Positions 3,547-35,990 of a stretch of 64,000 nt of DNA are shown here, one piece after another. Each line of letters starts with the position of its first letter. Position 1 is the stretch's first letter. The stretch comes from Klebsiella phage vB_KpM_FBKp34. A program made the translations under genes and the position numbers. The notes beneath the pieces were generated by a model. The model was not told the origin of the DNA. It was given only the letters and a program-made list of their open reading frames with translations, and made no database searches. The DNA is taken from the sequence record MW394390.1; one strand, given 5' to 3'.

Positions 3547-3820
3547 TATTTACGTCCTTACCTTTAGGTCTAGGCTCTTGATCGTCTTCAGTTTGATTAA
3601 AATCTCCGTAACGATACTTCATTAATTTACTTGCAAGATTAGGAGTAACTACGATACATGCATAAATCCATGCATACCATTCAGGCAATCCTATGAAAAA
3701 GCCAAAGTAAATAAATACTGCGGTCATACATAGAAAACCAACATTACTCCAAAACCTTGTATGTGAATATTGCCCACCAGGTCTAAAGGCAAATAAAAAA
3801 GATTTTAAAAAATTTATCAT
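3539..3820 (-). CDS. small membrane protein (2 predicted TM helices, charged C-terminus)
   Basis: ATG at 3820 preceded by GAGGTG RBS; hydrophobic segments FLKSFLFAF and FLCMTAVFIYFGFFIGL, acidic/basic tail; embedded in baseplate cluster. Confidence 0.4.
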   Translation of the reverse strand: MINFLKSFLFAFRPGGQYSHTRFWSNVGFLCMTAVFIYFGFFIGLPEWYAWIYACIVVTPNLASKLMKYRYGDFNQTEDDQEPRPKGKDVNNE

Positions 3821-23649: not shown

Positions 23650-23924
23650 ATTAAACCTATGCTAAAATATAATTATTTAAACAACTAAAGGGACATTTTG
23701 AAAAAGTCTTATTTATCTAAATCACACTCTAAAACTTTTAGTGTCACACATATTATTTTTGTTTCTAGATATAGAGAAATATATTCAATCTTAAGAAAGA
23801 CCTGATTAACACTTAGCTCACTAATCCCACACCTAAAGTGAGTGGGCTTATCGTTCGCAATTTGGTAATAGATTGAATAGTCTGTATCGTTCAATCGTTA
23901 GTTATGACGCTATATGCATATCAT

Positions 23925-25330
23925 CAGGCTATTTGACATCCTCCCCATCCTAAAGGATGGGGATTCCTAATTCATCGAGGTTTCTAATGAAACCTCTCCA
24001 AAGGCTTAAATTTCCGTGTGTCCCACGGTATTTATTTCTATATAACTATAATATATTAAATTCTTTTATGCAGCAAGAGCTTTACAATTAAAAATTTCTA
24101 AACCTCTTTTATGAATATTTAAAGCAGCATTAATGTCTCGGTCATGGTCTGTTTTACAAGAAGGACACACCCAATGACGAACATTAAGTTTCAATTCCTC
24201 AAGAACATGACCACAACATGAACAAGTTTTAGACGAGGGATAGAATTGTTCTATCTTCACAATGCTACGTCCAAACCAGGATGCTTTATACTCAAGTTGC
24301 CTTACAAACTCACCCCAAGATGCATCAGCAATATGTTTTGCCAATTTTCTATTTTTAATCATATTTTTAACTTTCAAAGTTTCAGTAGAAATTATTTGGT
24401 AAGTTTTTACTAAATTAGATGTTGCTTTATGCAATGCATCACGGCGAGAATCACTAACTTTAGCATGTGTTTTAGCAACTTTCAAACGCATTTTATTATA
24501 ATTGCTTCCACCTTTTTTCATCCGACTAAGTTTTCTCTGCAAACGTGCGAGACGTTTAGCATATTTCTTTGTAAACTTGCCATTTTTACCTTTAAGTCCA
24601 TCTGCTGTAATATAAAGGTCTTTTAAACCAAGATCAATGCCTGTTGTCTTACTCGATATTGGCAGTTCTTCAATTTCAGTTTCACACAAACAAGACACAA
24701 AATATCTACCAGATGCATCTTTACTGATAGTAATTGACGAAGGGTGACTTGGTAATTCACCATAACTCCATTTAACATCCAGCGAGACTTTCATTGATTT
24801 GGCAATGAAAAGTTGACCATTAATGTATTTAAAAGCATTCTTCGTGAGATTAAATGAGTAACTATTATCATAACGGCTTTTGAACTTAGGAAATCTAGCT
24901 CTTCCAGAGAAAAAGTTGCTATAAGCTTTTTCTTGGTTTCTCAGTTCTTGTTGCAGTGCTACCACTGAAACTTCGTTAAGCCACTCATATTCTTTTTTAA
25001 CTTTAGTTAACTCTCTCGATGCTTCGGCAAAGTTAATCTTATTTTTATCTTTTTCATAAGCCTCTTTTCTCCAAGCTAATATATGGTTATAGATAAAACG
25101 ACAAGAACCAAATGTCTTAGCAAGAAGGATTTTTTGTTCTTGTGTTGGATAAAAACGCATTTTATAAGCTTTTAAAATAATCTTTTTCATTTGATCCCTT
25201 TCTAACTATCGTTCTCAGTTTGGTCAGAATTCACAAAGTGATCTAAATCATATTTAATAAATCATAAAATTGACATCCTCCTCACCCTAAAGATTGTGGA
25301 GTTTCTCCTTCATAGAACCTTATAATCAAG
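23925..25330 (-). mobile_element. IS200/IS605-family insertion element (TnpB only, no TnpA)
   Basis: tnpB flanked by related subterminal hairpins (RE: CCCCATCC-TAAA-GGATGGGG and GAGGTTTC-TAAT-GAAACCTC; LE: GACATCCTCCTCACCCTAAAGATTGTGGAG, GGTGA-TGTCC-TCACC); both ends share TTGACATCCTCC...CCTAAAG; boundaries approximate. Confidence 0.6.
24066..25190 (-). CDS. tnpB: TnpB (OrfB) RNA-guided nuclease-like transposon protein
   Basis: 374 aa; C-terminal zinc finger CSCCGH...CPSCK and RuvC-III-like [12 protein letters not shown] motif. Confidence 0.8.
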
Positions 25331-25622
25331 ACTCTCCAGAGACTTAAAATCGGTGATGTCCTCACCTACTGAAAATCATAATATACTACTTAAATCTAAA
25401 GTTCAAGCTTTTTACTTTTTCGTTTAATTGTCAAAAACGTTATCAATAGCTCTGTTGATACTCCCAGCCATAAATAACTGGGATTCTTCCTTCAATGGCT
25501 TTCTAACGATTACCTCCAGAAGCATAACTTCGGCGTTAACCACACCTAGAAGATTACTTGTCTTTCGACTTGTTTCTCTCAACAAGAGACACTTTACAGA
25601 GTCCCTTAGTAAAAGTCAACGT

Positions 25623-27970: not shown

Positions 27971-28045
27971 TGGAGGGTAGTAGTGGAATCTAACCACTCT
28001 AATACTGTTTTGCAGACAGATACATGAACACTCTGACAACTACCC
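27971..28045 (-). tRNA. tRNA-Cys (anticodon GCA), weak D-stem
   Basis: Perfect acceptor GGGTAGT/ACTACCC, anticodon loop CTGCAAA, T-arm AGTGG-TTAGATT-CCACT, CCA; D-stem poorly paired. Confidence 0.55.
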
Positions 28046-28733: not shown

Positions 28734-28847
28734 TGGCGGTGAATTCAGGAATCGAACCTGAGCCTACTCCATGACAAGGGAGATTGAATGCTGTAAAACT
28801 TCTCTAAGAAGTTATTTTTAGTTATTCTACCACTAAACTAATTCACC
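28734..28847 (-). tRNA. 114-nt tRNA-Leu-like (anticodon TAG) with about 38 nt of extra sequence
   Basis: Perfect acceptor GGTGAAT/ATTCACC, D-arm GTTT-AGTGGTA-GAAT, canonical anticodon arm AACTT-CTTAGAG-AAGTT, extra hairpin CTCC-CTTGTCAT-GGAG containing a TTTACAGCA repeat motif, perfect T-arm TCAGG-TTCGATT-CCTGA, CCA. Confidence 0.5.
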
Positions 28848-29029: not shown

Positions 29030-29170
29030 TAATTATCAGAAGCTATCTTTTCTATACTTTCGCTCTACCAGGCTGAGCTATTCCCCGTCAGTTGTTCGGG
29101 GAAGCAGGATTTGAACCTACGACCAAAAGTTCCCATTAGATTTTATTTGCTGTAAAGCTTCTTTGATAAA
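29030..29170 (-). ncRNA. candidate Y-RNA-like ncRNA containing a circularly permuted tRNA-like module
   Basis: On the minus strand a tRNA 3' half (ACTTT-TGGTC-GTAGG-TTCAAAT-CCTGC-TTCCCCG-A) precedes, across an 8-nt linker, a 5' half (CGGGGAA-TA-GCTC-AGCCTGGTA-GAGC-G-AAAGT). The halves pair perfectly (7/7 acceptor, 5/5 anticodon-stem). Flanks can pair as AGAAGCT/AGCTTCT and ATCT/AGAT. Lies directly downstream of the Ro60-like gene on the same strand. Confidence 0.4.
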
Positions 29171-35699: not shown

Positions 35700-35990
35700 A
35701 GTTTCAGTGTCAACACCTAATTGTCCCTAAAAAGAGACATTCCTAATTGTCCCTAAAAAGGCACACAATACTAACTTATGATCTAGTTTATAGACTAACT
35801 TATGATTATATATTATTAATTATAAATAATTAATATGATTTAGATCACATGTAAATTTATACAGTTGTTTTGTGATCTAAATTTATGTTTTATCATCTTT
35901 TGATCACATAGTAAAGTTAAAAAATAATCTTGACTTTAGTCTAATAGATAGTTAGTATCTATACATAAATTAATAATTATGAGGTACTTA
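35700..35990. promoter_or_regulatory. divergent regulatory region with direct and inverted repeats
   Basis: Two direct copies of CCTAATTGTCCCTAAAAAG; 12-bp inverted repeats ATTTAGATCACA / TGTGATCTAAAT about 30 nt apart; repeated AACTTATGAT. Confidence 0.45.
35930..35958 (+). promoter_or_regulatory. sigma70-like promoter for the rightward operon
   Basis: TTGACT-17 nt-TAGTAT, then GAGGT RBS before the ATG at 35990. Confidence 0.5.

Follow-up and report, generated by a model that had tools for sequence, protein, structure and literature searches.

A phage-borne TnpB with three omegaRNA-like modules and variable spacers that match a Klebsiella chromosomal island

We describe a locus of Klebsiella phage vB_KpM_FBKp34, of the Stephanstirmvirinae, found in a 64,000-nucleotide (nt) stretch of the ~145-kb phage (sequence record MW394390.1; this whole stretch is hereafter the window). 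The minus strand carries a tnpB gene, whose product has 100% identity to the protein annotated in this phage as 'transposase accessory protein', and three modules that resemble the omegaRNA-encoding right end of insertion sequences (IS) of the IS605/IS608 type. Each module is followed by a segment, here called a spacer, that differs between related phages, and most of the spacer alleles match one family of Klebsiella islands. From these sequences we propose that the protein is probably a domesticated IS605/IS608-type TnpB, an RNA-guided nuclease used by the phage against a mobile island of the host chromosome. TnpB is generally thought to serve only its own transposon, guided by whatever DNA flanks it, and CRISPR-Cas12 is thought to have arisen when a TnpB-like nuclease gained an array of foreign spacers. 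The components of the locus, all on the minus strand, are the following:

24066..25190 (-): tnpB, 374 amino acids, RuvC D-E-D triad and zinc finger intact
23933..24034 (-): module 1, predicted canonical omegaRNA 3' scaffold and right end, GAAT-CCCCATCC TTTA GGATGGGG-AGGATGTCAA
23867..23932 (-): spacer 1, 66 nt, beginning ATAGCCTGATGATATGCATA; putative guide of the canonical omegaRNA; hypervariable, 5 alleles
25270..25372 (-): module 2, omegaRNA/right-end-like scaffold finishing in ...GGAGGATGTCAA; it includes the 'left-end hairpin' of a preliminary description of the region
25225..25269 (-): spacer 2, 45 nt; 5 unrelated alleles among phages
25455..25592 (-): module 3, omegaRNA/right-end-like; covariance-model match at 25455-25552 plus a conserved ~40-nt 5' extension; finishing in GAAT-hairpin-AGTATCAA
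25430..25454 (-): spacer 3, CAGAGCTATTGATAACGTTTTTGAC, straight after TCAA; 3 alleles among phages

The preliminary description, made from the sequence alone, had recognized a 374-amino-acid TnpB of the IS200/IS605 type with a zinc finger and a RuvC-like nuclease, and the database comparisons agree with it. The protein matched the Pfam domains HTH_OrfB_IS605 (PF12323), OrfB_IS605 (PF01385) and Cas12f1-like_TNB (PF07282), all above their cut-offs, scored 356 bits on the NCBIfam model guided_TnpB (cut-off 100), and aligned over its full length to the ISDra2 TnpB structures 8h1j/8bf8 (E ~5e-86). In the alignment to ISDra2 TnpB, both CxxC pairs of the zinc finger (CxxC...CxxC) are in place, and the first RuvC Asp (D181, in GIDLG), the Glu (STETL) and the last Asp are present, the counterparts in 8h1j being GVDVG, GTEHL and HDRDENAALNI; no inactivating change of the triad was found. 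These matches place the protein firmly in the IS605-type TnpB family. Among the phage variants, the dN/dS ratio of tnpB is 0.10–0.25. The lack of a TnpA, also noted earlier, was borne out by a tblastn search of the window with two Y1 TnpA queries from IMG/VR loci, which gave no match (best E 0.3), and the open reading frames (ORFs) in the immediate neighbourhood of tnpB hold no recognizable TnpA or Cas1/Cas2 domain. No DNA relative of the element was found in E. coli genomes, and IMG/VR holds no close relative of the tnpB gene or of module 3.

The sequences on either side of tnpB are direct repeats of about 100 nt on the minus strand (84% identity between 23933-23963 and 25270-25300), and both finish with an imperfect hairpin followed by GGATGTCAA. 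A third copy lies further upstream, at 25455-25552, and finishes in GAGTATCAA. The identity between modules is 72–84% in the matching stretches. In modules 1 and 3 the hairpin is immediately preceded by GAAT, on its 5' side, and the module closes with TCAA; these are exactly the guide (GR) and cleavage (CR) motifs of the IS608 right end (PMC5934647). In an alignment of ten distinct module sequences, three hairpins have 93% of their cells paired, against 36–44% with slid partners, a control that somewhat favours the structure because it was read from the same aligned sequences. On the other hand, 13 of 21 hairpin pairs are altered on both sides, and the first stem is fully compensated between modules (5/5 pairs); such compensatory changes between paralogous modules are independent evidence for the predicted stems. 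When compared with shuffled sequences, modules 1 and 3 fold with z = -4.0 and z = -3.7, respectively.

A covariance model built from the phage modules found only the three of them in the window, with scores of 120 bits (module 1), 105 bits (module 2) and 91.6 bits (module 3). Outside its building set, the same model also found the 3' ends of other tnpB genes, IMG/VR loci among them: those of loci L007 (a Pseudomonas phage), L008, L009, L010 and L029, of Klebsiella phage ZCKp20p and of Gifsy-1 (E 5e-11 to 1e-2). Since these loci are independent, the omegaRNA/right-end family of this TnpB clade includes all three modules. The earlier placing of an omegaRNA scaffold in the 3' flank of the gene is thus upheld by both the fold of 23933-24034 and its match to the same region of other tnpB loci. 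The related hairpins that had been described at both ends of the gene do exist, but the upstream one belongs to a second module of the right-end/omegaRNA type; the reading of module 2 as a left end was rejected, for it is a full right-end-type module that finishes in TCAA. An extent of 23925-25330 for the element is too short, since the third module falls outside it. As a side observation, 23920-23998 (-), which covers the terminal hairpin of module 1 and the start of spacer 1, gave a sub-threshold match to the Rfam HgcC family RNA (30.2 bits, gathering score 50).

Eleven further phage contigs carry the same tnpB (94–100% protein identity), always between the same 107-aa and 61-aa ORFs, and each of them has exactly three modules. 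A sporadic insertion, as implied by the preliminary description, does not fit this single site and the purifying selection on the gene; these same facts support domestication, which it had offered as an option. The cassette flanks are 92–98% identical among these phages, and the sequence straight after each TCAA is unrelated between them, with a length of 21–124 nt. There are 5 alleles after module 1, 5 after module 2 and 3 after module 3, reassorted among genomes. The variable segments after modules 1 and 2 always finish in T-N-A-C, which is followed by CAAAYTGMGAACGATA. No relative with an empty site was found; KP13-16, which is the nearest record to the window in the phage collection and the sole close one there, holds a different cassette.

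The search of the alleles against plasmid sequences led to two K. pneumoniae 'plasmid' records that hold an integrated element of ~12 kb. At E<1e-3, 9 of the 13 alleles match this island family, or 10 of 13 when spacer 3a is included, and all the matches begin at nucleotide 1 of the guide. In the controls, shuffled guides gave 1 match in 520 and random segments of the window gave 2 in 520. Spacer 2 together with the AC that follows it is identical to the island at 47 of 47 positions (L040/L041/L065), straight after TTAC in the island. Spacer 3 matches at 22 of 24 positions from nucleotide 1, after TTAC or TCAC, and its sister allele at 23 of 24; four other alleles of spacer 1 also match the island. 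The guides just outside the right end, which the preliminary description had suggested be sought, are not the ordinary phage flank: these variable segments match a Klebsiella island beside TNAC, and spacer 1 of the window is without a match.

The 5' flanks of the protospacers in the island are TCAC, ATAC/CTAC, TCAC, TAAC, TTAC, TAAC, TAAC, TTAC/TCAC and TTAT. TNAC thus precedes seven of the nine and AC eight of the nine, against a background of 1.6% of island positions for T.AC. TTAC is the target and left-end cleavage site of IS608 (PMC5934647), and in IS605 elements the transposon-adjacent motif (TAM) needed by TnpB is the same left-end-adjacent motif that is used by TnpA (PMC10055086). On the right-hand side, the piece also finishes in TNAC within the island for the clearest alleles (g2a, g1c and g2b); the remaining junctions deviate from this by a single base or an indel. 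Protospacers occur throughout the conserved island core, on both strands, in the small integrase-family gene, a ~1-kb intergenic region, a 93-aa ORF, the capsid-like gene and the 600-aa gene. As both strands of the island are matched, the guides fit DNA targeting and not antisense RNA, which was considered and rejected. A transfer in the other direction, from the phage to the island, was also rejected, because the matched sequences belong to conserved genes of the island and change from one island lineage to another.

Two further observations concern the spacers. When the window and the related phage loci were searched for guide targets, the sole match was an exact one of 17 nt to positions 16–32 of spacer 2, in the window at 35832-35848, in AT-rich sequence; it is probably due to chance and is unlikely to be a self-target, since it does not include the 5' end of the guide. 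In the related phage L002, the 124-nt spacer 3b (3675-3798) is a mosaic of at least three island pieces, from the 600-aa gene region and a nearby region, and one piece finishes in TATCAA, a right-end-type cleavage motif. This mosaic suggests repeated capture or rearrangement events.

The island was sampled in part, through 32 variants fetched by means of their helix-turn-helix (HTH) protein. Among these variants, the family is confined to Klebsiella and Raoultella, and the 602-aa island protein, searched against GTDB genomes, brought up a single locus, from Raoultella. The genes include a tyrosine integrase (of two types, with several integration sites), a small integrase-family protein or a serine invertase, an HTH protein weakly similar to replication initiators, an Ant-like protein, a 600-aa protein and a capsid-like protein (PHROG 29, E 3e-5; precomputed Pfam Phage_cap_E on variants). 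The variable cargo comprises RVT_1, DUF4062, UDG, DUF2971 and CbtA genes, and the DUF2971 protein matches the candidate defence family PDC-S31. Judged by its gene content, the island would fit a phage satellite or a defence island. In the 35 island loci searched for modules and TnpA, neither was found. The 'plasmid' records themselves (L040/L041), NZ_CP074582.1 ('plasmid p2B30155') and also NZ_CP084170.1, are of 120 kb, with chromosomal genes plus the ~12-kb island; the presence of sodB, purR, tyrS, rnt, nth and rsx shows that they are chromosomal DNA, probably mis-assigned.

Phage KP13-16 (L001, OP617741.1) presents at the same site a different TnpB-family protein, of 419 aa and 30% identity, with its motifs intact. 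On the minus strand, before this tnpB (~5545-5400), there is a mini-array of type I-E-like CRISPR repeats, GTGTTCCCCACATGCGTGGGGATAAACCG, with spacers of 32–33 nt; after the gene (~4096-3850) there is an omegaRNA-like scaffold, followed by 27-nt repeats, GTGTATCCCGCGCAAGCATTGGTGAAC. One of the upstream spacers matches the same Klebsiella island at 32 of 32 positions, and one of the downstream spacers does so at 22 of 24, a few bases away, while spacer 1 of this phage has no target in the collections searched. Two unrelated guide systems at one phage locus thus aim at one island. The KP13-16 locus could be a natural intermediate between TnpB and CRISPR.

In the mechanism that we propose for the window, the three omegaRNA modules, which share their strand with tnpB (modules 3 and 2 before the gene, module 1 after it), would be transcribed, with module 2 as the 5' leader of the tnpB messenger RNA. 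Each module finishes at the right-end cleavage motif TCAA, and its RNA would continue into a spacer copied from the island, of which the first ~16–20 nt would be the guide. After expression and processing, TnpB would load all three diverged scaffolds, recognize 5'-TNAC plus the protospacer in the island, and cleave this DNA in infected cells in which the island is present or replicating, to the benefit of the phage. The copies in the phage are preceded by TCAA and not by TNAC, so that its own DNA would be spared, according to the logic of TAM and transposon-encoded motif (TEM) in IS605 elements (PMC10055086).

Two promoter-like sites and two left-end-like motifs were also read from the sequence, as follows:

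25591..25619 (-): P3, promoter-like, TTGACT-17-TAAAGT, 9/12 match, upstream of module 3
25378..25406 (-): P2, promoter-like, TTGAAC-17-TATTAT, 9/12 match, upstream of module 2
25207..25224 (-): ACCAAACTGAGAACGATA motif, left-end-like start without a hairpin, between spacer 2 and the tnpB ribosome-binding site
23826..23866 (-): LE', left-end-like element, ACCAAATTGCGAACGATAA followed by the hairpin GCCCACTCACTTTAGGTGTGGG

P3 is conserved in all related phages, KP13-16 included, and P2 in the phages that carry tnpB; should P2 be a true promoter, the tnpB messenger RNA would have module 2 as its leader. The motif at 25207-25224 repeats that at 23849-23866, and it is kept after every allele of spacers 1 and 2 as T-N-A-C-CAAA. 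LE' is conserved in the tnpB-carrying phages, and its hairpin starts 17 nt beyond the TNAC| junction. In IS608, the left-end cleavage site reportedly lies ~19 nt 5' of its hairpin, and by that distance the geometry of LE' would be similar. A 61-aa ORF with a TTG start extends over spacer 1 and the left-end-like hairpin (23709-23894, minus strand); it has no family match and is probably not a gene.

Each spacer has TCAA| to its left and TNAC| to its right, the pair of sites at which a Y1 transposase cuts, and this is the ground on which we propose that spacers are captured by TnpA-type chemistry. In foreign single-stranded DNA, cuts would be made on the 3' side of two TNAC sites, and the fragment would then be pasted into the right-end|left-end junction (TCAA|...TNAC|CAAA...), with a TnpA supplied by the host or by the part of the phage genome beyond the window. 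Repeated events of this type would fit the composite spacer 3b of L002. As a tentative extension, the locus would then be a living intermediate between IS605 elements and type V CRISPR, a CRISPR-independent adaptive store of guides against a phage satellite; we consider this possible, with the balance tilted against it.

Several observations weigh against the use of this TnpB on the island. Spacer 1, which is the canonical guide of the window, and alleles 2c and 2d have no target in the collections searched; for spacer 1, BLAST or exact 20–22-mer searches of phages, plasmids, E. coli, GTDB, IMG/VR and the fetched islands gave no match, and the JGI metagenomes gave one chance 20-mer, on a GC-rich contig and without TNAC. 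Spacer 3 of the window differs from the best island variant at two positions, 5 and 11, and one protospacer has TTAT and not TNAC. The fold energy of module 2 is no better than that of shuffled sequences (z = -0.44). The promoter calls are weak, with 14 sigma-70-like sites in the region against 10.2 expected; since such sites are no commoner than in shuffled sequence, P2 and P3 are only suggestions. The phage contigs are few and several are near-identical. Finally, the nature of the island is hinted at, and not established, by an integrase, a protein similar to HTH/replication initiators, a weak match to a major capsid protein and one cargo match to a candidate defence family.

Four other explanations were weighed. 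An ordinary TnpB-only IS200/IS605 element that landed in the tRNA region, with neighbouring phage DNA as its guide for homing or retention, would account for the TnpB family, the IS608-type right end (GAAT...TCAA) and the absent TnpA, all of which are typical of such elements, and the related tnpB genes of other phages do form compact IS elements (gipA of Gifsy-1 and ZCKp20p). A mobile IS would be expected to have a left end with a subterminal hairpin upstream of the gene, several copies or variable sites, and a guide equal to the local flank. In the window, however, the upstream end is of the right-end type, the motif before tnpB lacks a hairpin, and the hairpin-bearing left-end-like element is downstream (23826-23866); there is one copy of the gene, at the same fixed locus in all related phages; and the guides differ wholly between phages with identical flanks, match a foreign island and match no phage in the 2.3-Gb collection. 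This explanation is largely refuted and we regard it as very improbable. A nuclease for homing or exclusion between phages, with guides that target related phages without the cassette in the manner of the homing endonucleases of T4-like tRNA regions, appears even harder to credit. The locus is indeed a variable hotspot beside tRNA genes, its relatives have an Endonuclease_7 or HNH gene nearby, and KP13-16 has a different cassette at the same site; yet no guide allele matches any phage record of the collection except itself, and most match the bacterial island.

Two explanations remain. If IS elements of this family had been shuttled between islands and phages by TnpA and recombination, the spacers could be passive scars, pieces of island flank dragged along and without present function. 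Segments bounded by the transposase cleavage motifs TCAA| and TNAC| do look like IS-insertion flanks, and some spacers are composite or have mismatches. Nevertheless, none of the 35 island loci has a right-end/omegaRNA module or TnpA, purifying or compensatory constraint acts on both tnpB and the scaffolds, and the unrelated guide system of KP13-16, at the same phage site, targets the same island. As at least ten island positions are represented at three fixed slots, each scar would need two nearby IS insertions and a double crossover, and we judge this origin unlikely. Binding instead of cutting, by a TldR-like repressor or roadblock of island genes or origin, or by a guide for the insertion or homing of the cassette into islands, is in our estimate a little less likely still. 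Three independent spacers, from three phages, do fall in the ~1-kb intergenic region upstream of the island main operon, and domesticated TnpB repressors are known from prophages (PMC10705468). Other spacers, however, lie inside coding genes of the island, on either strand, the protein differs from TldR in its intact RuvC D-E-D triad and C-terminus, and no copy of the cassette was seen in the islands, against homing. The use of TnpB as a nuclease against the island is the reading that we prefer.

Other features were observed around the cassette. Between module 3 and the conserved 107-aa ORF, the segment 25623-26940 holds two ORFs of 124 and 285 aa without family matches. KP13-16 and L003/L004 lack both; L002 and L032 have a 231-aa ORF instead and L035 has two other ORFs, so this segment is a second presence/absence hotspot beside the cassette. 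In the tRNA block, Rfam gave matches at 27974-28045 and 28737-28847 (-), with 43.9 and 47.7 bits, which were not called by ARAGORN; the second, of 111 nt, may carry an insertion or intron, and the block may hold 19 rather than 17 genes. Just past this block, at 29036-29143 (-), there is a sub-threshold match to the YrlA Y-RNA-like family (39.6 bits, gathering score 69, E 5e-6).

The locus combines a nuclease that appears active from its motifs with several full omegaRNA modules, foreign and fast-changing spacers and a clear target motif, with no CRISPR repeats and no Cas1/Cas2 nearby. It makes two questions testable, the natural retargeting of a transposon nuclease and the use of transposase cleavage sites as a device for spacer capture. 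It further suggests that Klebsiella phages of the Stephanstirmvirinae are in conflict with a Klebsiella-specific island family, a conflict that had gone unremarked and that bears on host range in phage therapy, and it offers a compact putative nuclease with three natural guide scaffolds and the short TNAC motif. Should capture mediated by a transposase be true, this would be a new kind of adaptive guide system, with heritable and updatable guides against a phage satellite.

Among known systems, the IS608/ISDra2-type elements share with the phage locus the fold and motifs of TnpB, the right end formed by GAAT, an imperfect hairpin and TCAA, and the guide straight after it; the TTAC target of IS608 also falls within the TNAC motif of the phage. 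Unlike these elements, the phage locus lacks TnpA in the window and a functional-looking left end before the gene, and it has three modules and not one, a fixed locus, and foreign, varying guides in place of the local flank. The closest phage-borne relatives are GipA of Gifsy-1 and the TnpB of ZCKp20p, with 57–59% identity and the same right-end layout, as found by the covariance model. They are, however, compact and single-module, with a scaffold that overlaps the 3' end of the ORF and a right end ~45 nt past the stop codon; they have one guide, fixed by the insertion site, and no multi-module arrangement was seen in them. The TldR proteins are nuclease-dead, TnpB-like, RNA-guided repressors domesticated in prophages (PMC10705468). 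They resemble the phage protein as phage-domesticated TnpB with a guide aimed at a host locus and not at the transposon donor joint, but the protein described here keeps the RuvC triad and the C-terminus, has three polymorphic guides that point at a mobile island and not at a housekeeping promoter, and belongs to the large phages of the Stephanstirmvirinae.

A closer parallel in function is found in phage-borne CRISPR systems. ICP1 carries a type I-F CRISPR-Cas against the PLE satellite, the Lalka phage carries Cas12r-CRISPR against host integrative elements, and ICP1 phages have alternative systems at one locus, aimed at PLE (10.64898/2026.04.20.719267). In the Klebsiella phages there is likewise an RNA-guided nuclease in a phage, with spacers that match a small integrative host element, and sister phages swap systems at the locus; in contrast to PLE, the Klebsiella island is a possible satellite only. 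Those systems rely on short-repeat CRISPR arrays, accompanied in ICP1 by Cas1/Cas2. In the locus described here, a complete omegaRNA scaffold of ~100 nt takes the place of each 'repeat', transposon cleavage motifs delimit the spacers, and adaptation genes were not seen nearby. Between 21000 and 29000 no short (about 25–40 nt), near-identical direct repeats were found, the ~100-nt units being separated by a gene; foreign spacers do stand beside a conserved motif, as in type V CRISPR, a resemblance of function only. TranC and other intermediates between TnpB and Cas12 share a duplicated guide-encoding right end and guides that are not of the transposon, which has been proposed as the first step to type V arrays. 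The phage modules differ from them as unsplit full scaffolds, mutually diverged, possibly with their own promoters, and not in a tandem array. Literature searches found no description of such an arrangement. By these comparisons, the locus would work most like a phage-borne CRISPR that targets host islands, yet it is built from transposon ends.

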